This document shows, one piece after another, positions 37,935-52,395 of a stretch of 64,000 bases of DNA (within the stretch, counting starts at the first letter, position 1; each line of letters starts with the position of its first letter). The DNA is from an uncultured Gemmatimonadaceae bacterium (GTDB taxonomy: Bacteria; Gemmatimonadota; Gemmatimonadetes; Gemmatimonadales; Gemmatimonadaceae), in assembly GCA_963751275.1 (NCBI GenBank), contig CAVVTZ010000007.1, positions 768,001 to 832,000 on the forward strand, written 5' to 3'. The translations under genes and the position numbers were made by a program. Below the pieces are notes generated by a model. It was not told the DNA's origin. It did not search any database and saw nothing but the letters and a program-made list of their open reading frames with translations.

Positions 37935-40900
37935 ATGTCCGACCTCCAAACTCGACTTCAGACCGCGCTCGGCGACGCCTATCGCATCGAGCGCGAGCTT
38001 GGTGGCGGCGGCATGTCGCACGTGTACCTCGCGCAGGAGACGGCGCTGGGCCGCCGCGTCGTGATCAAGGTGCTGCCCCCGGAGATGGCGGCGGGCGTGA
38101 ACATCGAGCGCTTCCGCCGCGAGATCCAACTTGCCGCCTCGCTCCAGCATCCGCACATCGTGCCGCTGCACGCCGCGGCGCAGGTCGGCGACCTCTTCTA
38201 CTACACGATGCCGCTCGTGGACGGGGAATCGCTGCGCGCGAAGCTCGCGCGCGAGGGCGAACTCCCGGTGGGCGACACGATCCGCATCATCCGCAATGTG
38301 GTCGATGCCCTCGCCTACGCCCACGCGCACGGTGTGGTGCACCGCGACATCAAACCCGACAACATCCTGATCTCGGGCAATCACGCCGTCGTGACCGACT
38401 TCGGCGTCGCCAAGGCCGTGAGCGCGTCCACCGGCGGCACGTCGCTGACGTCGATGGGCTTGGCGCTGGGCACGCCGGCGTACATGGCGCCGGAGCAGGC
38501 GGCGGCCGATCCGCACGTGGACCATCGCGCCGATCTCTACGCCGTGGGCGCCACCGCGTACGAGATGCTCTGCGGGCACCCGCCGTTCAGCGGCATGTCG
38601 CCGCAGCAAGTGCTCGCGGCGCACGTGACGCTCGCGCCGGCGCCGCTCAGTTCGCAGCGCGCATCAGTGCCGCCGGCGCTCAACGAATTGATCATGCGCT
38701 GCCTCGAGAAGAAGCCCGCCGACCGCGTGCAGCGCGCCGAGGATCTGCTCACCCAGCTCCAGGCGATGGCGACACCCAGCGGCGGCATGGCGCCCACTGG
38801 CGCGACGCCCGCCCTCACGAGCGGAGCGAAGGCCGCGATCCGGCGCACGAACCCGATGCGCGTCACGATGATGTTCGCGGCCGCTTCGGTGGCGGTGCTC
38901 GGGATCGTCTTCCTGCTGCGCAACGTGCTCGGCCTGCCCAACTGGGTGCTCGGCGCCGCCGGCGTGCTGCTCCTCGCCGGACTTCCGATCATGATCATGA
39001 CCGGCCGCCGCGAGCGCGCGCGGCTCGAGGCGGCGCACACCGGCACATTCATGGTGCCGCCCGTGGGCGTCGAGAAGCTGTTCACCTGGCGGCGTGCCAT
39101 CCTCGGCGGCGTCGCGGCGTTCGCGCTGCTCGCGGTGATCGTGATCGGCTACACCGTGATGCGCGTCATGGGCATCGGTTCCGTCGGCACGCTGCAGGCG
39201 AAGGGCCTGCTCAAGGCACGTCAGCCGATCCTGCTGGCGGAATTCGAGAATCGCTCCACCGATTCCACACTGGGCCCCACGCTCACCGAGGCGTTCCGCG
39301 TCGACCTCTCGCAGTCGCAAACGGTGAAGCTGCTCGACGCGCAGGCGGTCAGCGACGCGCTCAATCGCATGCAAAAGCCACCGGGCTCGGTGCTGATCCC
39401 GGCGCTCGCGCGCGAGGTCGCCGAGCGCGAGGGCGTGCCGGCGATCGTCGAGGGGCAGATCGATCCGGTGGGCAAGAGTTTCGTCGTCTCGGCGAAGATC
39501 GTTTCCGCGAAGGATGGCGCGGTGCTCACCGCCGTGCGCGAGACCGCCGCCGCCGACGCCGACTTGATCCCCGCGCTCGACAAGCTGTCGCGCGCACTGC
39601 GCGAGCGCATCGGCGAATCGCTCGTGAGCATTCGCGCCGACGAGCCGCTCGCGCACGTCACCACCGGTTCGCTCGATGCGCTGAAGAAATACACGCAGGC
39701 GCTGCGGCTCTCGGACGTGGGGCAGGAAGAGCAGTCGGTCCCGCTCTACGAGGAAGCCGTCGCGATGGACAGCGGCTTCGCGATGGCCTGGCGCAAGCTC
39801 GGCGCGATCTACCAGAACATGGGCGCGTCCAACGTGAAGGTGATCAACGCGATCAAGAATGCGTACAAGTACCGTGACCGGCTCCCTGAACTCGAGCGGC
39901 AGGCGACGATCGCGTACTACTACAACGCGGTGGACAACGAGCCGACGAAGGTGGAGGCGGCGTATCGCGCGATGCTCGCGATCGACCCGGACAATACGAT
40001 CCCGCTCAATAATCTCTCGATCGTACTCTTTGACATGCGGCGGTACGCCGAAGCCGAGAGCCTGGCCGTGCGCTGCATGGACAACGGCGTCTTCTCCAAT
40101 TGCCCGTTCCACGCGATCCGCGCGCAGATGGCGCAAGGGAAGATGGCCGCCGCCGACACGTCGCTCGCGCGCTGGCAGCGGGCACTGCCGACCGATCCCA
40201 ACCTGGGCTTCAGCCGCTCCGGCATGGCGGCGGTCCGCGGCGACTATGCTGCGGCGGAACGGATCTCCCGCGAGAACAAGGCGGCGCATCCCGCCTCGCT
40301 CTACGTGCAGGAGATCTCCGACCAGTCGCTCGCCGCGTTCGCCGCGGATCAGGGCCAGCTGAACCGGGCGTTGCAATCGCTGCGCGCCGCGCAGGCGTCG
40401 GCGGAGGCGCGGGCGCTGCCGGGCGACTACCTGAGCCTCGCCGCGAACTACGCCCTGGTCGAGATCCGTGACCTCAATCGCTCCGCCGAAGCGATCGCCA
40501 GGGTGAACGCCGCGATGGCGAAACACCCGCTCTCGACCATGGATGCCGTCGATCGACCATATACCATCCTCGCCAGCGCGTACGCGGCGGGCGGCCGCAT
40601 CGAGGACGCCCAGCGCCTGATGGCCGAGTACGCGAACGAAGTGCCCAAGGATCTGCAGAAAGGCGATTTCAACGCGTCGGCCGCCGCCGGCGACATCGCC
40701 GCCGCGCAGGGCCGTCCGGCCGATGCGATCGCGGCGTACCGCCGCATGCGCACACAGTTCGGCTGTCCCCAGTGCGGACTGTTCGAGATCGCCACCCAGT
40801 TCCAGAAGCTCGGCGAACCCGACTCGGCGCTCGTGTACTATGAGGCCGGGCTCGCGAACTCCGGACCGCAGCGGGCGATCTTCACGGACCCCGTCACGCT

Positions 40901-41072
40901 CGCGGCCACCTATCAGCGCCTGGGCGAACTGTACGAGGCCAAGGGCGACCGGAAGAAGGCGATGGAGTATTATCTCAAGCTCGCCGACCTGTGGAAGAAC
41001 GCCGATCCCGAGCTCCAGCCGATCGTGAAGGACGCCCACGCGCGCGTCGCGCGCCTCTCGGCCGAACACTAG
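37935..41072 (+). CDS. Hanks-type Ser/Thr kinase with TM segments and TPR C-terminus
   Basis: LGGGGMS, VIK, HRDIKPDN, DFG, GTPAYMAPE; three hydrophobic stretches; helical repeats. Confidence 0.93.
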   Translation: MSDLQTRLQTALGDAYRIERELGGGGMSHVYLAQETALGRRVVIKVLPPEMAAGVNIERFRREIQLAASLQHPHIVPLHAAAQVGDLFYYTMPLVDGESLRAKLAREGELPVGDTIRIIRNVVDALAYAHAHGVVHRDIKPDNILISGNHAVVTDFGVAKAVSASTGGTSLTSMGLALGTPAYMAPEQAAADPHVDHRADLYAVGATAYEMLCGHPPFSGMSPQQVLAAHVTLAPAPLSSQRASVPPALNELIMRCLEKKPADRVQRAEDLLTQLQAMATPSGGMAPTGATPALTSGAKAAIRRTNPMRVTMMFAAASVAVLGIVFLLRNVLGLPNWVLGAAGVLLLAGLPIMIMTGRRERARLEAAHTGTFMVPPVGVEKLFTWRRAILGGVAAFALLAVIVIGYTVMRVMGIGSVGTLQAKGLLKARQPILLAEFENRSTDSTLGPTLTEAFRVDLSQSQTVKLLDAQAVSDALNRMQKPPGSVLIPALAREVAEREGVPAIVEGQIDPVGKSFVVSAKIVSAKDGAVLTAVRETAAADADLIPALDKLSRALRERIGESLVSIRADEPLAHVTTGSLDALKKYTQALRLSDVGQEEQSVPLYEEAVAMDSGFAMAWRKLGAIYQNMGASNVKVINAIKNAYKYRDRLPELERQATIAYYYNAVDNEPTKVEAAYRAMLAIDPDNTIPLNNLSIVLFDMRRYAEAESLAVRCMDNGVFSNCPFHAIRAQMAQGKMAAADTSLARWQRALPTDPNLGFSRSGMAAVRGDYAAAERISRENKAAHPASLYVQEISDQSLAAFAADQGQLNRALQSLRAAQASAEARALPGDYLSLAANYALVEIRDLNRSAEAIARVNAAMAKHPLSTMDAVDRPYTILASAYAAGGRIEDAQRLMAEYANEVPKDLQKGDFNASAAAGDIAAAQGRPADAIAAYRRMRTQFGCPQCGLFEIATQFQKLGEPDSALVYYEAGLANSGPQRAIFTDPVTLAATYQRLGELYEAKGDRKKAMEYYLKLADLWKNADPELQPIVKDAHARVARLSAEH

Positions 41073-41187: not shown

Positions 41188-42090
41188 ATGCGACGCATAT
41201 CCGCCATTCTGTTGGTCGTGGGCCTCATGGCCTGCGAGAAGATCGGCTCCGGCGGCGGCACCAGCGCCTCGAAGCCCGATTCGATCACCGTACTGAACAC
41301 CCAGCTCGCGCAGGCGAAGGCCGTGGCCGCGCAGCAGGATTCGCTCCTGCAGGGCTTCCAGCAGACCACGCAGCTCTTGGCCGACATCGACAAGGATCTG
41401 TCGAGCGTGAAGGGCCTCAAGAGCCACGTGGCGGTCGACACCAAGGGTGAGAACCCGAACGACCCGCAGGCCGCGTACCGCGCGAGCCTCCAGGGCAAGG
41501 TGGCCGAAGTGACCTCGCTGCTGAAGCAGAGCCGCGCCCGCGTCGCCGCGCTGAACGAGAAGAACGAGGCGCTCGGCGGCAAGGTGGCGACCTATGAGGC
41601 GAGCATCGCGAGCCTCCAGCAGATCGTGGAGCAGGACAAGGAACAGATGGCCGCGCTGCACATCCAGGTCGACAGCCTCACGCTGGCGAACGCGACCGTG
41701 ACCACCGAGAAGGTGGCCGTGACGGACACGATGCTCACCCTGCGCAAGCAGGAGAACACGGTGTTCGTGGTGGTCGGCACGAAGGATGAGCTGATGAAGA
41801 AGGGGATCATCACGGAAGAGGGCTCCAAGTTCCTCTTCTTCGGCAGCAAGGCGATGGTGCCCGCGCGCAAGCTGGACAAGACGCAGTTCACCGCCATCAA
41901 TAAGTGGGACGATGTGCCGGTGGTGCTGCACATCACGGACAAGCCGTACAAGGTCGTGTCGCGCCAGGATCCCTCGCTGATCGAAGCGGGCAAGGATTCG
42001 GCGGGCAAGTTCAACGGCGAACTCCACATCACGCAGCCGGCCGAGTTCTGGTCGACGAGCAAGTACCTCATCATCGTAGAAGGCGCCTAA
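41188..42090 (+). CDS. Coiled-coil lipoprotein
   Basis: Lipobox LMAC, long coiled coil, GTKDEL..KGI, FWSTSKYLII. Confidence 0.75.
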   Translation: MRRISAILLVVGLMACEKIGSGGGTSASKPDSITVLNTQLAQAKAVAAQQDSLLQGFQQTTQLLADIDKDLSSVKGLKSHVAVDTKGENPNDPQAAYRASLQGKVAEVTSLLKQSRARVAALNEKNEALGGKVATYEASIASLQQIVEQDKEQMAALHIQVDSLTLANATVTTEKVAVTDTMLTLRKQENTVFVVVGTKDELMKKGIITEEGSKFLFFGSKAMVPARKLDKTQFTAINKWDDVPVVLHITDKPYKVVSRQDPSLIEAGKDSAGKFNGELHITQPAEFWSTSKYLIIVEGA

Positions 42091-42107
42091 ACTTCCTCGT
42101 GAAGGCC

Positions 42108-42144
42108 GAACGGCCGGCTGATCCTTCGGGATCAGCCGGCCGTT
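42108..42144 (+). terminator. Intrinsic terminator hairpin
   Basis: aacggccggctgatcc-TTCG-ggatcagccggccgtt. Confidence 0.8.
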
Positions 42145-42154
42145 TCCACATCCT

Positions 42155-42352
42155 ACAGGCGCGTGTAGGCACTAGTACCGCTTGAGACGCGCGTCTGGGA
42201 GGCAGCGTGTGGTACGAGCAGGGCGGGAGTTGTACTGCGGCTGCGCTTGTGGGGCGTGGGCGGATTGGGTCGTGCGACTCCCGCCGAGCCGTACCACACG
42301 CCGCCTCCTAGACGCGCATCCTCAAGCGGTACTAGTCCCCACACGCGCCTGT
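42155..42352. repeat. Long palindromic element, family A
   Basis: acaggcgcgtgt..actagtaccgcttgag ... ctcaagcggtactagt..acacgcgcctgt; homologous to 55152 and 58165. Confidence 0.85.
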
Positions 42353-42359
42353 GCGCCGG

Positions 42360-43316
42360 TCAGTCGACCCGCGACGACAGCTGCGCCGGGAACGGCTGCG
42401 AGGGAGTTGGCAGCATCACCCCGTTCACGGGCGAGAGCCGCTTCGCGCGTTTCTCCTCGTACATGAGACGGTCGGCGCGCGCGAGCAGGTCGTCCAGGTC
42501 GCGCGGCGCGTCGGGATCGTAGTAGGCGATGCCGATGCTCAGCGAGAGCAGATAGCGGCGGTCGGCGCGCGCGTTGCGGGCGCGGAGGTTCTCCTGCAGG
42601 CGCGCGGTCCACAGCTCGGCGTCGGCGCCCGCGTTCTCCATGGCGAGCACCACGAACTCGTCGCCGCCCATGCGCGCGATGATGTCCGAATCGCGGAACG
42701 TCTCCTTCAGCAGCTCCGTCGTCTCGAGCAGCGCCTGGTCGCCCACGCTGTGGCCCAGCGTGTCGTTGATCACCTTCAGCCCGTCGAGGTCCACGAAGAT
42801 GTGCGACACGCGGCGGCGCATCCGGTCCGCGACCTTGAACAGCTGGCGCGCGAGCGCGAGCAGGCCGCGCCGGTTGTAGAGCAGCGTCAGCGGATCCACC
42901 AGCGACATCTCGCGCAGCGCGGCGTGCAGCTGCTGGCGCTCGATCGCGTAGCGGATCGCGCGCACGAGCAAATGGCCGTCCACCTGGCCCTTCACGAGCG
43001 AGTCCTGCGCGCCCACCTTCAGCGCGCGCATCGCCAGCGCCTCATCGTCCACGCTGCTCAGCACGATGATCGGCAGGTCGGGCTGCTGCTCGTGGAGCAG
43101 CTTGAGCGGATGCAGGTCGTGCCCGTCGCTCAGCGAGAGGTCGAGCAGCACGGCGTCGAACTTCCGGTCGCTCATGCGGTGCAGCGCATCGCTCACCTGC
43201 GTCACGTGCACGAGGTCGAACTGCGCGGCCGCGCGGCCCGCCACCGCGCCGTTGAGGCGCCGGACGTCCCGCTCGCTGTCTGCGATCACCAATACCCGGA
43301 TCGGACCGCCGCTCAA
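42360..43316 (-). CDS. REC-GGDEF diguanylate cyclase
   Basis: LLDLSL receiver; DPLT, DLDGLK, RDSD I-site, intact GGDEF; TTG start overlaps the upstream TGA. Confidence 0.9.
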   Translation of the reverse strand: MSGGPIRVLVIADSERDVRRLNGAVAGRAAAQFDLVHVTQVSDALHRMSDRKFDAVLLDLSLSDGHDLHPLKLLHEQQPDLPIIVLSSVDDEALAMRALKVGAQDSLVKGQVDGHLLVRAIRYAIERQQLHAALREMSLVDPLTLLYNRRGLLALARQLFKVADRMRRRVSHIFVDLDGLKVINDTLGHSVGDQALLETTELLKETFRDSDIIARMGGDEFVVLAMENAGADAELWTARLQENLRARNARADRRYLLSLSIGIAYYDPDAPRDLDDLLARADRLMYEEKRAKRLSPVNGVMLPTPSQPFPAQLSSRVD

Positions 43317-44962
43317 ACCGCCACCCGCTCGTGCTGCGGCACCGCGACGGGCCGCGGCGGCGGCGCCAACGTGGCGCTCCGCTGGTCCAGGATCCCCATG
43401 AACAGCTTGAACAGGGCGGGGTCGAACGCGGCGCCGACGTCCGCCTGCATGATCTCGCGCGCGCGCTCGCGCGTGAACGCGGTGCGGTACGGCCGGTCGG
43501 TCACCAGCGCGTCCCACACATCGGCAATGCAAAGGATGCGCGCCGAGAGCGGGATCGCCTCGCCCGCGATCCTGTCGGGATAGCCGGTGCCGTCCCAACG
43601 CTCGTGGTGGTGCCGGATCATCGGCTTCACGTCCCACGGGAATTCGATGCCCGCGAGCATCTTCTCGCCGGCCGCCGGATGGCGCTCCATGAGCGCGCGC
43701 TCCTCCGCGGTGAGCGGGCCCGGCTTGTTCAGGATGCTCGACGGCACGATCAGCTTGCCCACGTCGTGCAGCAGCGCGCCGGCGCGGAACCAGAACAGCG
43801 TCTCGTGGTCCAGCCCCGCCATGCGCGCGAGCGCGCACGCGTAGTCGGCCACGCGGTCGCAGTGGCCGCTCGTGTAGTTGTCCTTCGACTCGATGGACGC
43901 GCCCCACTCGGCCACGATCTCCAGGAACTTCGCTTCCAGCTCGCCCAGGCGCCGCCGCGTCTCCACCACGTCGCGCCGCGCGCGCAGTTGCGAGAACAGC
44001 CGGTGCGCCGTGTTCAGCTCGCGCAGCGTGTCGCGATTGCGGTCCTGCCGCCGGTAGAGTTCGGCGCGCTCCTTGGCCGTGTGCGCCGCGAGCAGCAGCT
44101 CGTGCCGCTGCTCGGCGATCTGCCAGGCCTGGCCGAAGAACTCCTCCGCCCCGCCGAAATCGCCCGTCTCGCGCGCGATCACGCCGTAATGCTTGTACGC
44201 ATCGCCCAGCCCGCGGTGGTCGCCGGTCTGCTCCGCCAGCGTGAGCGCGGTGTCGCACCACTCGCGCGCCTTCACGTATTCCCGGCGCGCGATCCACAGT
44301 TCCGCCCGGTTCACCGCCACCGCGATCTGCGTGCCCACGTCGCCCGTGCGCACCGCCGTGTCGAACGCCTCGAGGTACATCTCCTCGGCCGAGCGCCACC
44401 GGCGCATCTGCGAGTAGAGCATCCCGATGTTGTTCAGCAGGCCGCAGAGCGGCCCGTCGAGGCCGAGGCGGCGATAACCGGCGAGCGCCGCGCGGTAGTG
44501 GGTGAGTGCCTTCGGCTGGTCGCCGCGGATCCCGGCGATCGTGCCCAGGTTCTGCTCGATCATCGCGACCAGCTGCGTCTCGCCGGCGAGCGTCGCGTAC
44601 TTCACCGCGCGGCCGTACAGGCGCGCGGCCTCGTCCAGATCGCCGCGCTGCTGGTGCGCGATCGCCATCAGATTGACCACGCTCGCCACGCCGGGCCGGT
44701 CGCTGTTGGCCATCGCCACCGCGAGCGCCGCGGCGTAGCAGTCGAAGGCCGACTCGGTGTCGGCATCGTCGGCGTAGGTGCGCCCCGTCCAGCGCAAGAG
44801 CGCCGAGGCGGTGGACGCGTGCTCGCGCTGGTCCAGGTCGTACAGCGCTTGCTCGTACATCGCGCGCGCGGCCGCCCGCTGCCCCGCGCGCTCCAGGCGC
44901 AGCGCCTCCGAGATGCGCGCCGCCAGCTCCGGCGCGAGCCCTTTCAGCTCGCGCGGCGTCAT
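43313..44962 (-). CDS. TPR plus HD-GYP phosphodiesterase
   Basis: TPR repeats (NLGTI, NNIGML); [36 protein letters not shown]. Confidence 0.92.
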
Positions 44963-46095
44963 TCCGGGGGCTCCGTACTGCCGCTCATCACGCCGTATTC
45001 GCGCAGTTTCCGCGCGAGCGTCGGACGCGAGATCCCGAGAATGCGCGCCGCCGCGCTGCGGTTTCCCCCGGTGATCTCCAGCATCGCCAGCACCGCCTCG
45101 CGCTCCACCAGCGCGAGCGCCTTCCCCTCCGGCGGGATCACGATCTCATGGTGCGCGCCCTGCGCCGCGTGGGTCGCGGGCATCGACATGCGCTGCTGGA
45201 TCATCATGTGCTCGGCGCCGATCGACTGTCCCTCGGACAGGATCGCCGCGTGCTCGATCACGTTCTTCAGCTCGCGGATGTTGCCGGGCCACATGTGCCC
45301 GCGCAGCGCCGCGGCCGCCGCGGGCTCGAGCGTCTTCGGCTCCAGGTCCTGCTGGCGCGCGATCTCGGCCAGGAAATGCTGCGCGAGCAGCTCGACATCC
45401 CCCGCGCGCGTGCGCAGCGGGGGCAGCACGATCCGGAAGACGTTGAGGCGGTAGTAGAGATCCTCGCGGAACTCGAGCCGCGCCACCGCATCGTGCAGCG
45501 ACGTATTGGCCGCCGTGATGATCCGGCAGCTGATCTCGATCTCCTGCAAGCCCCCGAGCCGGCGCACGCGGCGCTCCTCGAGCGCGCGGAGCAGCTTGGG
45601 CTGCAACCGCGGGGGCAGCTCGCCGATCTCGTCCAGGAAGAGCGTGCCGTTGCCGGCGAGCTCCATCAGGCCGCGCTTCTGCGCGCGCGCGTCGGTGAAC
45701 GCGCCCCGCTCGTGCCCGAACAGCTCGGACTCCAACAGCGTCTCGGGGATCGCGGCGCAGTTCACTGCGACGAACGGCTCGCCGCGCGATGCGCCTTCGT
45801 AGTGGATGCCGCGCGCGAAGAGCTCCTTGCCGGTGCCCGTCTCGCCCACGACCAGCACCGTCGTCAGGCGGCTGGACGCCACCTTGCGCGCGCGCTCCAG
45901 GGCGTCCCGGATCGCATCGCTCTCACCGACGATATTCTCGAGGCCGAATTGCAACGCTCCCCCGGGTCGTGACTCCAAGCAAGGGACTTCAGCGGGCGCT
46001 CCAAAGTAACCGGGCTCGGCGGCGTCCGGCACCTCCGGCGCGCGCAGCCGCGGAGCCGGCGGATGCGCGGTGGGATCCGCGCGCATCTTGCTCAT
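44959..46095 (-). CDS. Sigma54-dependent activator lacking an N-terminal sensor domain
   Basis: [48 protein letters not shown], Fis-type HTH. Confidence 0.92.
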
Positions 46096-47144
46096 GCGGC
46101 GAGCGCCGACAGGCGCCGTTCGACGTCGCCCACCTGGCGCGCCGCGCCGAGCGCGCGGAAGCGCGTGAGCGCCTGCTCCCACGCGAGCCGTGCCGCCGCG
46201 GGCTCGCCGCGACGCAGCCACAACTCGCCCGCGTCGCGCTCCACTTCCGCCTCGAGCAGGGCATCCTCGGTCTCGCGCGCCATCGCGCGCGCCGCGTCCA
46301 GCGACCGTGTCGCGCTCTCCAGCTCGCCGCGCTCCCGGCCCACCAGTGCGAGCAGGCGCAGCGACTCGGCGTGACGTGCCCGGTCCCCCCGGTGCTCGGC
46401 CATCGCGAGGCCATGCCGGCACACGGTCTCCGCGTCGGCCAGCAGCCCCCGTGCGACGAGCAGTTCCACGCGGCTCAGCTCCACCGCCTCCGTCAGCGGC
46501 ACGTCCCCGATCCGCTTGGCGAGCGCGAGCGCCTCCTGCGACGCGCGCTCCGCTTCGTCGAGTTCCCCCGCCAGCGTGTGCAACCGCCCCACGTTGCAGA
46601 GCACCCAGCACGCGCCCTCCTCGTCGCCCGCATCGCGGAATCCGCGGAGGCTCAGCCGGAAGCGCGCGAGCGCGTCCTTGTCCTCGCCCTGCACCATGGC
46701 GAGCGCGCCAAGGTTCTGTTCGATCATCCCGAACAGCCGGCGCTCGCCCGCGTGCACCGCGTTCAGCCCCGCCTCGGCGTACAGACGCCGCGCCTGCTTC
46801 ACGTCGCCGCGCCGCTGCGCCACGATGGCGAGGCAATTGAGCGCGTTCGCAATGCCGCCGGCGTACGGGAGCGTGCGCGAAAGGGTGAGACTCCGCGCGT
46901 ACAGCGGCTCGGCCCCCGCCAAGTCGCCGAGCTCGCGCCGCAGGGTGCCCTTCCAGCGCAGGATGTCCGCGAGCTGCGCGGTCGGGCGGTGCGTCTCCAA
47001 CAGCGTGATCGCGAGGTCGTAGGCCGCAAGCGCTTCGCGCGCGCTGCCCTCACGTTCGAGACGCTGCGCACGGTCCGCGATGCGATGCGCCTCGGCCGCC
47101 GGCGGTGTCCGCTCCGCCGAGGAGTGCGTGATCGACTTGTTCAC
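46092..47144 (-). CDS. Stand-alone TPR protein
   Basis: All-helical repeats similar to the TPR region of the HD-GYP protein (both contain MIEQNLG). Confidence 0.85.
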
Positions 47145-47174
47145 GGGATGTCCCCCCGGGTTCCCGCGCCGGCC

Positions 47175-47840
47175 CTAGTGCCGCCCCCCGATCACGCCGC
47201 AGCACGTCGGCTGGTACTGCGAGGCCAGGATCACCACCGAGAAGTGCGGCACCGGGAAGGACGCGGAAGTCAACGCATCGTTGACCGTCGCTGTCAGGTC
47301 CTGATACGTCGTGACCCCATCGTCCGCGCCGATCAGGAGCCGCGACACGATGTATCCGCCGCTCAACTGCTTCGCGATCGCCTGACTCTTGTACGCGTTG
47401 GTGAAGCTCAGATCGAGCGTCAGCGTCGCCGGCGTCGCGAACTGCAGCCCGCTCGGTGACATCTCGAACACCACGTTGCGGCCGGCGTCGGCACGCATCG
47501 TGATCTTCGTCCGCTTGGTGAGTGCGCCGGCCGGCACCGTGAAGACCGCGCCGACCGATGGGATCCGGATCGCGCCGCCCTGCGCCCCGATCGCCGCGCT
47601 CGCCGACACATTGTGCTTGAGACGCGGCACCCAGCGCAGCACCCGCACCTTGTGGCCGTGATTCCCGTCGGCAGCGGCCACCCGGTCCGCTGCAGCGAGC
47701 GGTACCGCGCTCGTCATGTTCGCGGACGGCGTAGCGGTCGAGGCGCTGCGCGTCGCCAGCGGCGACGTCGTGTCGCCGCAGGCATACATCGCGCCGATGC
47801 CGGCCAACAGGGCGCCGGTCGCAGCAAGGCGGACGTTCAT
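47175..47840 (-). CDS. Lipoprotein with ZU5-like domain and HFS motif
   Basis: Lipobox MYAC; IGAQGGAI.IP...F.VPAGAL; SPSGLQFATPATL; PHFS. Confidence 0.75.
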   Translation of the reverse strand: MNVRLAATGALLAGIGAMYACGDTTSPLATRSASTATPSANMTSAVPLAAADRVAAADGNHGHKVRVLRWVPRLKHNVSASAAIGAQGGAIRIPSVGAVFTVPAGALTKRTKITMRADAGRNVVFEMSPSGLQFATPATLTLDLSFTNAYKSQAIAKQLSGGYIVSRLLIGADDGVTTYQDLTATVNDALTSASFPVPHFSVVILASQYQPTCCGVIGGRH

Positions 47841-47900
47841 GGGGACTTCTCCGTTCGAAGGGCGGGGGAACAGCGGCATGGCGGACGAGTGTCTATCTAT

Positions 47901-47916
47901 AGCAACTGCTGTGCCT
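47901..47916 (-). promoter_or_regulatory. Sigma54 (-24/-12) promoter
   Basis: Minus strand reads AGGCACAGCAGTTGCT (GG-N10-GC), close to TGGCAC-N5-TTGCW; the operon encodes a sigma54 activator. Confidence 0.8.
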
Positions 47917-47956
47917 CACGTAACTCGTTGCCATTGCACGTTCTTTTTCAGCAGGT

Positions 47957-48041
47957 GGAACGCATCGTTCCGGGGTATCAGAACGTTACGTTACAACAGC
48001 GGAACGTTTCTTACCGTCACGCAACGGGACGTTACCGTCAC
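47957..48041. promoter_or_regulatory. Candidate upstream activator sites
   Basis: ggaacg-cat-cgttcc palindrome at 47957; gaacgtt at 47981/48002; ttaccgtcac at 48011/48032 (21-bp spacing). Confidence 0.5.
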
Positions 48042-48048
48042 CGTGGAC

Positions 48049-48933
48049 CTATTGACCGATTCCCGCTCCGCTCGCATGCGCCCAAACCAGCCGCGAAACA
48101 TCGGCTGTGAGACGCCGAGTGACCGAGTCGCCGGCGCTCCCTTGATGCAGCACCACGAGCACGTACGGCGTGGCGGATAGCGGGTAGACGATCGCCGCAT
48201 CATGGTCGACCAGGCCATCGACCCACCCGGTCTTGTGCGCCACCGGTGTATGCGGCGGCAGGCCCGCGGGAATGCCGTCGTCGAACTCCTGCTTGAGGAG
48301 GATCGCGAGCATCGCCTTGCAGCTCGCCGGCGAGGCGGCCTTGTCCTGGGCGATCGCCGCCATCACCACGGCGAGATCGTGCGCGGTCACCGTGTTGATG
48401 AGTCCCGCGCGATACGCCGGGATGTCTTCCACGCCGCGCAGCACGCGAATATGCGGTGCGCCCAGTTCATGCATCGTCTGGGTGACCTGCGCCGGACCCG
48501 CGAGATCGATCAGCACGTTCGTCGCGAGATTGCTCGAGCGCGTGATCATGAGAAAGATCAGCTCGCTCACCGTGACCGGCTGTCCGACGCGCGCATACAG
48601 CGAGCTGTCGGAGTCATCGGCCATGTCGAGCGCGTACGGCGAGCCGTCGACGATCGACTTGAACTCGTTCTGCAGCGTGATCTTCGTGTCGAGCGAGAGC
48701 GTGCCCGCGTCCACCATGCGGTAGAGCTGGATCATCACCGGCACCTTCATCGTGCTCGCCGCGTGGTAGGTCCAATTGTCGTGGATGAGCAGCGAGTCCG
48801 CGTTCGCCGCGAGCGGCCAGTAGGCCACGGCGGTGCGCGTCGTGGAATCGACGGCGATCCGCGCGCGTACTTCCGCTTCGAGCGTGGTGGGTGGCTGGAG
48901 CGCGATGATCAGCGCCAGGATGATCTGCATCAT
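48049..48933 (-). CDS. Serine hydrolase, class A beta-lactamase-like
   Basis: STMK, SSN, HKTG. Confidence 0.88.
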   Translation of the reverse strand: MMQIILALIIALQPPTTLEAEVRARIAVDSTTRTAVAYWPLAANADSLLIHDNWTYHAASTMKVPVMIQLYRMVDAGTLSLDTKITLQNEFKSIVDGSPYALDMADDSDSSLYARVGQPVTVSELIFLMITRSSNLATNVLIDLAGPAQVTQTMHELGAPHIRVLRGVEDIPAYRAGLINTVTAHDLAVVMAAIAQDKAASPASCKAMLAILLKQEFDDGIPAGLPPHTPVAHKTGWVDGLVDHDAAIVYPLSATPYVLVVLHQGSAGDSVTRRLTADVSRLVWAHASGAGIGQ

Positions 48934-49898: not shown

Positions 49899-51422
49899 AT
49901 GACCAGGTCCCTCGCGCGGTGCGCGCTGGCTGCGCTCTTCGCGGCCGCCGCGTGCCACTCCGCTCCTCCGGCCACCGCGCCGGCGCCGGGCACCGTCGTG
50001 CCTGGTGCGGCGCCACGCGACTCGATGCAGGCCGCGAGCGCACGCCCGGACACCATGCGTCGCGACAGCACCCCGATCCCGGTGCCCGAGGTGACTCACG
50101 AGGCGGTGAGCCTCTTTGGCGACTCCATCTCGGCGCCGACCATGGTAGCCGACAGCATCGCGGATTCGAGCGCGGCGCAACCGGCTCCCGTGGCCGCCGC
50201 GGCCGCACCCGCCGCCGCGACGTGGGACATCGATGTCCGCTCCTACGAAACGCGGCAGCGCGTCGCGTTCTACGTCGCGCGCTTCCAGGGTGAGGCGCGG
50301 CCCCGGTTCAGCGCGTGGCTGCAGCGCGGCGGACGGTATGAACCAATGATCCGCGCGAAGCTCAAGAAGGCTGGACTGCCCGAAGACCTCACCTATCTCG
50401 CCCTCATCGAGAGCGGCTACGATCCCAACGCGTACTCGAGCGCAGCCGCGATCGGCATCTGGCAGCTCATGACCGGCACCGCCCAGGGGACCGGCCTCCG
50501 TGTGGACTGGTGGATCGACGAGCGCCGCGATCCCGTGCGCTCCACCGACGGCGCGATCAAGTTCCTCGGCTGGCTCAACGGGCAGTTCGGCTCGCTCTAT
50601 CTCGCCGCCGCCGCATACAATGGCGGCCCCGGTCGCGTCGCACGCGGGCTTACGCGCTACGCCGATTCGCTCGAAGGGCGCACCGGCGACGACCGGTTCT
50701 TCGCGTTGGCGGAGACCGACTATCTGCGCGCCGAGACGCGGGATTATGTGCCGAAGCTGATCGCCGCGGCGCTCGTTGCGAAAGAGCCCGCGAAGTACGG
50801 ACTCGCGATCACGCTCGATCCGCCGCTCGCGTACGACTCGGCGCTGCTGGGTCCCGCGACGCCGCTGGCGTTGGTCGCGAAAGCGGCGGGTGCGCCGCTG
50901 CCGAAGATCATGGAGCTGAACAACGGGATCCTGCGCGGGATGACGCCGCCGGCCGGACAGTGGTGGGTACGGATTCCGGCTGGAAGCGGCATCGCGTTCG
51001 ACTCGGCGTTCGCACTGGTCCCAGCGAGCAAAAGATCAGGAATCCAGCGCTATACGGTGAAAAACAACAGCAGTATCACGACAGTAAGCCATAAATTCAA
51101 GCTATCATCGCGACAGTTCATCTGGTTCAACCCGCAATACAAGAAGAGCAAGAGCGGCGTGGTCGGAGCGGGGAAGGTCGTGCTCATCCCCACGGCCGCT
51201 ACCCTCTCTGCCGCGCGCGACGTGCCGGACCCCGCGATCGAGAAATACGGTTCATCGCGCCAGCATTCGGTGACGCACGTGGTGAAGAAGGGCGAGACGC
51301 TCACGTCGATCGCGACGCGGTACGGGACTACCGCGGCATCGCTTCGAAAGCTGAACGGGTTGAAGACGAACGCGATATACCCGGGTCAGGTCCTGCTCAT
51401 CAAGAAGGGCAAGAGGCGATAG
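49899..51422 (+). CDS. MltD-like lytic transglycosylase with LysM
   Basis: Lipobox; LALIESG, GIWQLM, DERRDP, AAYNGG, ETRDYVPK; LysM HVVKKGETL. Confidence 0.92.
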   Translation: MTRSLARCALAALFAAAACHSAPPATAPAPGTVVPGAAPRDSMQAASARPDTMRRDSTPIPVPEVTHEAVSLFGDSISAPTMVADSIADSSAAQPAPVAAAAAPAAATWDIDVRSYETRQRVAFYVARFQGEARPRFSAWLQRGGRYEPMIRAKLKKAGLPEDLTYLALIESGYDPNAYSSAAAIGIWQLMTGTAQGTGLRVDWWIDERRDPVRSTDGAIKFLGWLNGQFGSLYLAAAAYNGGPGRVARGLTRYADSLEGRTGDDRFFALAETDYLRAETRDYVPKLIAAALVAKEPAKYGLAITLDPPLAYDSALLGPATPLALVAKAAGAPLPKIMELNNGILRGMTPPAGQWWVRIPAGSGIAFDSAFALVPASKRSGIQRYTVKNNSSITTVSHKFKLSSRQFIWFNPQYKKSKSGVVGAGKVVLIPTAATLSAARDVPDPAIEKYGSSRQHSVTHVVKKGETLTSIATRYGTTAASLRKLNGLKTNAIYPGQVLLIKKGKRR

Positions 51423-51449
51423 TAGCACCACTCCCTGACTCCGTGAGAC

Positions 51450-51606
51450 GCACCCCCAACGCCGTGAGGCGTGAGGCGTGCGCCGAACAGACTGCACCGC
51501 GTGCGACGAGACCCGAACTCCGTGAGTCACTCACGAAGCTCGGGTCTCGCCGCACGCCTCACAATCAGTTCGGCGCACGCCTCACGCCTCACGGCGTTCG
51601 GGGTGC
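51450..51606. repeat. Nested palindrome, family B-related, with GTGAGGC heptamers
   Basis: gcacccccaacgccgtgaggcgtgaggcgtgcgccgaac ... gttcggcgcacgcctcacgcctcacggcgttcggggtgc; inner cccgaactccgtga. Confidence 0.8.
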
Positions 51607-51620
51607 CAATACCGCCGTTC

Positions 51621-52313
51621 TTAGTCGACCGTGCCCCGTCCTTTATAGCCTCTCATCACCGCCAACTCGTACCCATTCCGCGGATCCTGCCCCAGCATCC
51701 GCATGGACTCCACGGTCTGCGAGCCGCGGTTATACACCAGCAGCGCGATCTGCACGTCCCCGCGGTACTGCGTGATCAGCGTCCGCAGGTAGCGGAATCC
51801 CACCCGCAGATTCGTGTGAACCTCGGTGAGGTTCTCACGGGTGGTGTCGCGCTCGAAGTACTTCGCCGTCGCCGGCATGATCTGCGTGAGCCCCACGGCG
51901 CCCGCCGAACTCACGGCGCGCTCGTTGAACTGGCTTTCGACCTTCACGAGGCGGAACGCCAGGTCCGGGTCGATCCCCTCCTCGAGCGCCACGTCGTACA
52001 CCGGCGCCGCGACATCCGCGCCCACCCTATACCGCGCCGAGTAGTCCAGGATCGCGTTCGCCCGGCTCAGCTGGGCGCGCGCGATGTCCAGATCGCTGCG
52101 GGTCGCGGCCAGATCAGCCGCCAGGCGGTGCGACTGCGCCACCAGTCCAAAAGCAAATCCACCGTTGGAAGAGGCTTCCGCCTCCCGGGGCTGCTCCGCT
52201 GGGATGAGCGCGATCGCCGCGATCAACCCGCCCACCAGCAACCCCTTCCTGATCCGCGCATTGCGGCGGATCCGGTCGCCACGGTGCGAATACGTCACTT
52301 TGGAAAATTTCAT
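51621..52313 (-). CDS. SLT-domain lytic transglycosylase
   Basis: VESQF, AVSSAGAVGLTQIMPATA, NLRVG, YNRG. Confidence 0.9.
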   Translation of the reverse strand: MKFSKVTYSHRGDRIRRNARIRKGLLVGGLIAAIALIPAEQPREAEASSNGGFAFGLVAQSHRLAADLAATRSDLDIARAQLSRANAILDYSARYRVGADVAAPVYDVALEEGIDPDLAFRLVKVESQFNERAVSSAGAVGLTQIMPATAKYFERDTTRENLTEVHTNLRVGFRYLRTLITQYRGDVQIALLVYNRGSQTVESMRMLGQDPRNGYELAVMRGYKGRGTVD

Positions 52314-52395
52314 GGTCCCCTCCAGAAGGCGGGTTCCAGACACACGAACGGGGCGACGAATCGCCCCGCAGCCCTTACGGGCAATACCACAACGG

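Follow-up and report, generated by a model that had tools for sequence, protein, structure and literature searches.

What would a small predicted lipoprotein be doing in front of a TPR protein, a sigma-54 activator and two enzymes of cyclic di-GMP (c-di-GMP) turnover? The question is raised by five co-directional genes, here called g1 to g5, on the minus strand at 42360-47840 of a 64,000-nt stretch of DNA (the window) from contig CAVVTZ010000007.1 of an uncultured Gemmatimonadaceae bacterium. Their order and domain content are as the initial annotation of this DNA had given them, namely a ZU5 lipoprotein (g1), a stand-alone TPR protein (g2), a sigma-54 activator (g3), a TPR-HD-GYP protein (g4) and a REC-GGDEF cyclase (g5), with the last four genes joined by the 4-nt overlaps ATGA, ATGA and TTGA. 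g1 and g2 lie 30 nt apart, and the g2/g3 overlap is not strictly kept, being replaced by a 9-nt gap in genome G005. We suggest that the operon is, on balance, probably a peptide signal-receptor circuit, in which the last strand of g1, cut off by the protein itself, would be imported by an oligopeptide permease (Opp) and bound in Asn-lined TPR grooves. The annotation had proposed that a g1 product sensed through the TPR modules controls both an autoregulatory sigma-54 loop and the level of c-di-GMP; this interpretation is partly supported, in that gene pairing and co-divergence make the sensing probable while the arm from TPR protein to activator is weaker. The annotation had named neither self-cleavage at HF|S by a ZU5/MAIN domain, the likely source of the signal, nor a connection with Opp.

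A lipoprotein with a putative cleavage site and its TPR partner

The product of g1 belongs to Pfam ZU5 (PF00791, E 6e-6), and its model gives matches to ankyrin, UNC5b and ZO-1 ZU5 domains with E-values as low as 3e-6, and weaker ones to GAIN domains, predicting a beta-sandwich of the ZU5/GAIN type. A basic region, a hydrophobic stretch and an invariant Cys make up a probable lipoprotein-type signal at its N-terminus, and a lipobox-like motif was found by pattern match in 254 of 279 ZU5 homologues. Across 16 g1 homologues Cys21, Phe134 and His199-Phe200-Ser201 are invariant. The last three form an H-x-(S/T) site ahead of the last strand of the model (residues 202-208), and cleavage between Phe and Ser at HF|S has been shown in bacterial GAIN-like domains, in MAIN of B. 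subtilis (bioRxiv 10.64898/2026.05.12.724683). The cut site is matched in 137 of 141 ZU5 domains, with Ser (128), Thr (7) or Cys (2) as the nucleophile and the site His kept in 130, and it stands within the last 45 residues in 144 of the 146 proteins of a protein-library set. The tail is exactly 7 residues long in 79 of 137 homologues, its length beyond the strand ranging from 7 to 48 residues, and many homologues have a free aromatic C-terminus. In its predicted layout g1 is the inverse of MAIN, with an N-terminal lipid anchor, no cargo and a chain that ends soon after the site, and the last strand would be the only part that cleavage could free. Tandem ZU5-ZU5 proteins with two HFS sites per chain also occur (P0028-P0032, P0042, P0046), as do arrays in which three to four ZU5 lipoprotein genes lead up to a single TPR gene and encode similar last strands (L066, L073, L186-L188, L361).

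As annotated, g2 consists of TPRs only, and its array is related to that of g4: the two are full-length paralogues with 33% identity over 332 aa, one duplicated module of eight 40-residue repeats and a cap, modelled with a pLDDT of 98. No signal or membrane segment was seen in g2 by hydropathy and a hydrophobic N-flank occurs in just two of 247 TPR proteins, so that a cytoplasmic location is predicted. The conserved polar residues of g2 are Arg63, Asn103, Asn144, Asn184, Glu227, Arg263 and Arg303, the three Asn being kept in 94-98% of 98 homologues, and by the TPR register we take these to be groove-facing positions. By E-value the best fold matches are peptide complexes of LGN/Pins; by TM-score the top match is MalT domain III (0.76), with a Rap-peptide complex at 0.65 (one Rap structure, Foldseek rank 45), and g2 also scores above the TPR_MalT cut-off. 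It has no RRNPP-specific match in Pfam at E 0.1 and none in NCBIfam, and no RRNPP receptor family appears among the best 60 of its 256 PDB sequence matches. The annotation had likened these arrays to RRNPP quorum sensors; MalT domain III and LGN/Pins are nearer to the module than RRNPP receptors are. A complex prediction that paired g2 with the C-terminal 30 residues of g1 scored 0.03 against a mark of 0.32 and was not counted either way.

To ask how constant the pairing is, 61 related genomes were searched with g2 and with a g1 alignment. A listed TPR match lay within 1.5 kb of 75 of the 93 strongest ZU5 matches, 67 of these 75 being upstream on the same strand, and 60 of the 66 strongest TPR matches had a ZU5 match within 3 kb. 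Pairing with a TPR gene was found at 17 of 20 loci of new genomes selected by ZU5 alone, and ZU5 was present at 60 of 70 TPR-selected loci. A DNA motif for the last strand gave at least 128 loci; where at least 1.2 kb followed downstream, a TPR gene was present in 69 of 73. The ZU5 alignment matches 99 of 151 genomes of the phylum, the TPR alignment 144 of 201 genomes of the family, and at E 1e-10 there are 3216 clusters in the protein library. Among the matches listed, 75 of 80 titled motif-scan loci are from Gemmatimonadota and the other five rows are three contigs of 1.6-4.4 kb; the Atlas clusters fall likewise. The host range could be wider than Gemmatimonadota, the motif scan being biased to this phylum. 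The tallies of the 61-, 151- and 201-genome searches and the OppA-like hits (below) include unpublished genomes (G012; G098, G136; G190, G191, G270), and the 70 TPR-chosen loci include one each from G190 and G270; the pair, tree and enrichment tests made no use of unpublished genomes. The frameshift-rich loci L032 and L036 were dropped from most counts.

The conserved core is thus the pair of ZU5/GAIN-fold lipoprotein and eight-repeat TPR module and not the five-gene set. Co-occurrence of the genes in related genomes, on which the annotation had staked its proposal, was found, but the full five-gene composition is confined to this genus and most cassettes lack the activator. Among 194 non-redundant pairs the output is TPR-HD-GYP in 103, TPR alone in 64 (some cut at locus ends), tandem TPR in 14 and a longer fusion in 13; plain TPR-HD-GYP is the commonest partner of the ZU5 gene. 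The flanking genes of the cassettes vary widely and g5 is lineage-specific, as would be expected if signalling genes were loosely clustered here with no common mechanism, a reading that we regard as very improbable given that the core pairing extends across families and classes in four differently selected sets.

The same genome carries a second cassette (L110, G000:C7 58382-55422) with an activator bearing an N-terminal extension (no Pfam match), a ZU5 lipoprotein, which ends in GF|T plus six residues and has a frameshift in the present assembly, and a stand-alone TPR protein. At L039, L046, L079 and L093 there are proteins of about 1600 aa that combine TPR, HD-GYP, GGDEF, a long unassigned region and a second TPR; in many cases two ZU5 genes, each of a different subtype, precede them.

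Evidence for the strand as the probable TPR ligand

If the last strand binds in the groove, the two might be expected to diverge together. For 97 non-overlapping ZU5-TPR pairs, with a tree built from the ZU5 core and the non-groove TPR columns, strand divergence tracked groove divergence after both overall distances had been removed (partial r 0.42, p 2e-5, n=97). Random sets of non-groove TPR columns gave a mean of 0.02 (0 of 200 reached 0.42) and other ZU5 6-mers a mean of 0.00 (0 of 40). The other helix-A and helix-B positions (-0.13 to 0.17) and the strand before HF (0.14 to 0.25) gave nothing significant. The signal persisted in the 55 pairs with TPR-HD-GYP only (r 0.41) and in the 49 closest pairs (0.43). 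This independent-pair test supersedes an all-pairs Mantel test (partial r 0.225).

A route of entry is suggested by OppA-like (SBP_bac_5) genes, present in 33 of 234 unique TPR loci where about 1.9 were expected (from 201 matches in 61 genomes). They occur in downstream, divergent and convergent arrangements, and this variety indicates that they do not reflect one inherited junction. On a tree, 25 of 26 cassette-linked OppA-like genes fall in one clade (support 99), together with the sole SBP_bac_5 of this genome (L398, G000:C9 637384-640932), which has two permease genes behind it. No import would be needed if the TPR grooves bound, in the cytoplasm, the C-terminal strand of g1 precursor that was unexported or misfolded. 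Such an export-stress sensor would account for the gene pairing and the co-divergence of strand and groove, would sidestep the problem of two membranes and would suit the free aromatic C-terminus of many homologues. We consider it unlikely, as it leaves unexplained both the enrichment of OppA-like genes and the strictness of the Ser/Thr/Cys nucleophile, and the tails past the strand vary in length.

Further support for the strand as ligand comes from genome G001 of the same genus, in which the promoter and g2 to g5 are intact and g1 is replaced by a 39-codon frame (L034, G001:C7 6076-6195, minus strand). This mini-gene consists of the signal region without the Cys, fused at the cut site to the eight residues that follow HF| here, and then a short tail; the first eight residues of the predicted peptide are thus the only mature part left. 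At 39 aa it fits the published size of RRNPP propeptides, 10-100 aa (PMC10075063; PMC9765709). The mini-gene protein is recorded on three contigs, and in each of two runs the stretch assembles as one contig at a depth of about 18, all from one study and possibly from the source DNA itself. In runs X1 and X4 the mini-gene had no coverage, and no RNA data set was listed for the stretch. In G001 the g4 groove is conserved at 33 of 36 positions. No further mini-gene was found at ten TPR loci without ZU5 (two cut by contig ends) or upstream of three more orphan loci, nor among seven metagenome matches to the strand, which were six full ZU5 genes and one unrelated sequence.

Because strand and groove diverge together, OppA-like genes are enriched and the G001 mini-gene exists, we take the cut-off strand to be the probable ligand of the TPR modules. 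A different ligand might be read from the structural likeness to MalT domain III and the score above the TPR_MalT cut-off: the modules could sense a small molecule or oligosaccharide as that domain does, with g1 merely a co-regulated surface protein. This seems improbable to us in view of the co-divergence with its negative controls, the near-obligate adjacency of ZU5 and a mini-gene that retains just the strand.

Proposed outputs to c-di-GMP and sigma-54

The annotation's description of the c-di-GMP enzymes as intact holds for both. Judged by the motif list and catalytic motif names in general use, the TPR-fused HD-GYP domain of g4 carries HxxR, HD, HHE, GYP, D-x-x-DA and RxY(R/K) and is predicted to be a phosphodiesterase; the five motifs checked were all present in 133 of 150 TPR-fused homologues. 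g5 has its GGDEF motif with an RxxD site. REC-GGDEF was detected in nine fetched loci, six of them from this genus, and is an accessory, local add-on outside the conserved core.

The -24/-12 promoter on which the annotation relied is present with one mismatch, but taken alone it is at chance level (1.26 expected per window). The site is conserved across ZU5 genes: a match with at most two mismatches lies upstream of 33 of 122 in the sense direction vs 2 of 122 antisense, and a relaxed motif, set after earlier matches had been viewed, precedes 43 of 87 first genes vs one antisense and 40 of 5000 random 200-mers. It is also found upstream of 22 of 88 ZU5 genes with no activator nearby. The genome has an RpoN-box sequence on contig C11.

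That g3 has AAA+ and HTH domains without a sensor domain was borne out, only about 50 residues preceding the AAA+ domain, which starts near residue 52. It matches PF00158 (220 bits) and PF02954, has the features of a bacterial enhancer-binding protein and keeps its Walker A/B, GAFTDA, R-finger and sensor II segments; the GAFTDA loop is found in 22 of 36 cassette activators. With 247 bits vs 444 it does not reach the PspF cut-offs. A single clade (support 99/96) unites 18 sensor-less activators, g3 being placed in it via its 97%-identical G005 orthologue; all those placed come from the family of this window, and one of the 18 is on a metagenome contig. Activators of a second group, which carry an N-terminal extension, usually occur together with ZU5 and a stand-alone TPR gene. 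At some loci an AraC-type or LytTR regulator occupies the activator's position upstream of ZU5 and TPR (L077:4158-4925, L149:6296-7111, L150:6821-7642).

Of 12 promoters at loci with a sensor-less activator, 8 contain the palindrome AAC-N5-GTT, in most cases 76-78 nt ahead of the -24 motif, compared with 3 of 33 promoters without an activator; a spacer of 5 gave nine sites, a spacer of 8 three and the other spacers from 2 to 9 none. The palindrome was chosen after the sequences had been viewed, and 4 of the 12 promoters are from this genus. We infer that the activator binds these sites, and autoregulation of the operon by the activator is likely because the palindrome is enriched at sensor-less-activator promoters, with three copies in this window.

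Control of the activator by g2 is plausible from gene order and is the least supported step of the proposal: 14 of the 18 sensor-less activators immediately follow a stand-alone TPR gene, and a fifteenth has one two genes away. Peptide sensing might also hold with g3 outside g2 control, being constitutive or responsive to c-di-GMP through g4 and g5, while g2 acts on g4 by TPR-TPR contact or buffers peptide. The nearest activators outside the genus, which lack a stand-alone TPR gene yet have TPR-HD-GYP, speak for this arrangement, as do the many stand-alone TPR loci without an activator and the TPR-TPR interaction of RcbA with RcbB (PMC12282931). The 14 directly adjacent genes, the fifteenth close by and the usual company of the N-terminal-extension group, which likewise includes ZU5 and a stand-alone TPR gene, speak for control by g2, and we hold the g2-independent arrangement to be rather unlikely.

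Table 1. Genes and sequence elements of the operon, in window coordinates.
Feature	Position	Strand	Description
g1	47175..47840	minus	predicted lipoprotein of 221 aa; in order, signal peptide, Cys21, low-confidence linker, domain of the ZU5/GAIN(MAIN) fold and C-terminal strand
g1 Cys21 lipobox codon	47778..47780	minus	alignment, lipobox-like pattern
g1 HF|S predicted autoproteolysis site	47238..47246	minus	His199-Phe200-Ser201
Predicted released peptide	47178..47240	minus	g1 residues 201-221 (21 aa)
g2	46092..47144	minus	stand-alone TPR protein, 350 aa, predicted peptide receptor; eight 40-residue repeats and cap helix
g3	44959..46095	minus	sigma-54 activator, AAA+ (GAFTDA) and Fis-HTH, without sensor domain
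g4	43313..44962	minus	TPR-HD-GYP, predicted peptide-gated c-di-GMP phosphodiesterase
g5	42360..43316	minus	REC-GGDEF diguanylate cyclase, RxxD site; putative TTG start
Sigma-54 -24/-12 promoter element	47901..47916	minus	1 mismatch; conserved before ZU5 genes
Candidate upstream activator sites	47956..48036	minus	AAC-N5-GTT at 48036-48020, 47995-47979 and 47972-47956; imperfect site at 48015-48000

The start of g1 at ATG 47840 agrees with the homologue alignment and has GGAG upstream; another in-frame ATG lies at 47879. No sigma-70-type promoter and no minus-strand terminator-like site was found in 41900-48200, and a tRNA was the sole Rfam match over the window. A near-perfect hairpin of about 200 nt follows g5 (42155-42352; -152.6 kcal/mol, z -15.9, no Rfam match) and resembles miniature inverted-repeat transposable elements (MITE) or repetitive extragenic palindromes (REP); it was rejected as part of the system, as the genome contains it as a dispersed repeat at 42 loci. 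Two plus-strand neighbours converge on the operon, a Ser/Thr kinase with a membrane segment and a TPR region (37935-41072) and a coiled-coil lipoprotein scoring slightly below the Cbp1 adhesin cut-off (41188-42090). On the upstream side a minus-strand gene of the class A beta-lactamase family (PF13354, 48049-49350), retained across the genus, adjoins the promoter; further upstream, on the minus strand, are two open reading frames (49899-52343) that by eye resemble lytic transglycosylases, one of them with a LysM-like C-terminus.

A proposed circuit and its place among known systems

Taken together, we picture g1 as lipidated, exported and, by homology to MAIN and GAIN domains, probably self-cleaving at HF|S. 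Its C-terminal strand would be let go through envelope damage, unfolding or turnover, imported via an Opp-type transporter and bound in the Asn-lined TPR grooves. Binding may switch the HD-GYP domain of g4 and so shift c-di-GMP against the cyclase g5. At the weakest step g2 would hold g3 off in trans, by the logic of PspA and PspF, until peptide binding freed g3, and the freed g3 could then act through the AAC-N5-GTT sites in positive feedback on the operon's own sigma-54 promoter.

Several observations weigh against this proposal. In MAIN the cut strand remains bound and is freed only with sodium dodecyl sulfate or heat (bioRxiv 10.64898/2026.05.12.724683), so that a release trigger is missing for the g1 strand. 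Seven of the 137 matched ZU5 domains have Gly instead of the site His, and a similar strand occurs in ZU5 domains of large proteins without TPR neighbours (L094, L097, L099, L101), which implies that the strand consensus is also structural. G017 has a TPR-HD-GYP without a ZU5 match. Two of the 33 cassette OppA-like genes were search seeds, and no Opp gene adjoins this operon. Groove positions were assigned from the general TPR register and not from contacts in a model. Column-level mutual information placed six peptide-groove pairs in the top 100 at 70% weighting and two at 50% weighting, vs 0.88 expected in each case; it is dominated by relatedness and adds no support. Only one case of the mini-gene was found, in one study, and it may be a relic; the g2 groove of G001 is only slightly more conserved (28 of 36) than elsewhere (221 of 299, 74%), and G001 retains a full ZU5 gene at another locus. 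Of the sensor-less activators, three of 18 (G008, G223, G243) have no stand-alone TPR gene at the locus, and none was found anywhere in G223, a 91% complete genome.

Among described systems, peptide signalling of the RRNPP type, known from Firmicutes and based on intracellular TPR proteins (PMC10075063), is the closest in logic. In Rap-Phr and its relatives, too, the gene of an exported precursor lies next to that of a cytoplasmic TPR protein of 250-500 aa, and a short hydrophobic mature peptide is re-imported to a receptor that acts by protein contact (PMC10075063; PMC9765709), as we infer for this operon. By its 350 aa, its repeats and its distance of 30 nt from g1 (within the published window of -60 to 400 bp), g2 has the features of such a receptor. 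It differs in showing no specific match to RRNPP receptor families in Pfam or NCBIfam and no N-terminal DNA-binding or effector domain, the outputs here being an HD-GYP fusion and a sigma-54 activator; g1, at 221 aa, is a folded lipoprotein with predicted self-cleavage and not a protease-cut propeptide of 10-100 aa; and the host belongs to Gemmatimonadota, not to Firmicutes, nor is the operon on one of their mobile elements. The system thus likely works like RRNPP signalling, yet it misses three RRNPP features as well as the architecture of MAIN.

With MAIN (bioRxiv 10.64898/2026.05.12.724683) g1 shares the ZU5/GAIN-type beta-sandwich and HF|S before the last strand. MAIN proteins are large (mean 158 kDa), have a C-terminal anchor, release cargo carried at the N-terminus and are described as having no signalling role, whereas g1 is free of cargo and ends 21 residues past the site; the main text of the preprint has no mention of lipoprotein, TPR, ZU5 or Gemmati-. 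In adhesion G-protein-coupled receptors, as related in the same preprint, a strand from GAIN self-cleavage (Stachel) is likewise the signal, but the Stachel stays fused to its membrane receptor, while the strand of g1 would be free and its receptor separate and cytoplasmic. Self-cleavage is also known for the bacterial ZU5 superfamily from polymorphic toxins and surface proteins (PMC3482391), where the domain sits within large RHS or surface proteins; in g1 it stands alone beside signalling genes. In MalT and other STAND proteins one chain carries both NTPase and TPR sensor, and neither g2 nor g4 has an NTPase domain.

PspF, with PspA, and HrpR/S, with HrpV, are sigma-54 activators without a sensor domain that are controlled in trans. 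g3 shares the lack of a sensor domain and presumably the control in trans, its partner differing in that it would be a TPR peptide receptor. RcbA and RcbB of Vibrio vulnificus (PMC12282931) are, like g2 and g4, an adjacent TPR protein and TPR-fused c-di-GMP enzyme and interact via their TPR domains; RcbB is a cyclase, and the abstract of that paper mentions no lipoprotein, peptide or activator. The annotation knew of no described system of this composition, which agrees with the literature searched, most subscription papers lying outside it, and the operon likely represents a form of peptide signalling not described before.

For microbial GAIN-like domains the role proposed to date is the release of cargo and not signalling (bioRxiv 10.64898/2026.05.12.724683). 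We tentatively put forward, as a possibility somewhat short of even, that the cassettes serve phylum-wide peptide communication in a two-membrane bacterium: a GAIN-like lipoprotein would store its pre-cut last strand, in effect a free Stachel peptide, until envelope or mechanical stress or turnover frees it, and a dedicated Opp clade would carry it to TPR receptors that feed into c-di-GMP turnover and sigma-54 feedback. The mini-gene of G001 would then be a conventional RRNPP-like propeptide arisen by one deletion. If this is true, a self-cleaving domain underlies peptide signalling in a widespread phylum whose members are mostly uncultured, its paralogous cassettes bear different peptide codes, and tethered agonists of the adhesion-receptor style would be tied to bacterial control by c-di-GMP and sigma-54.

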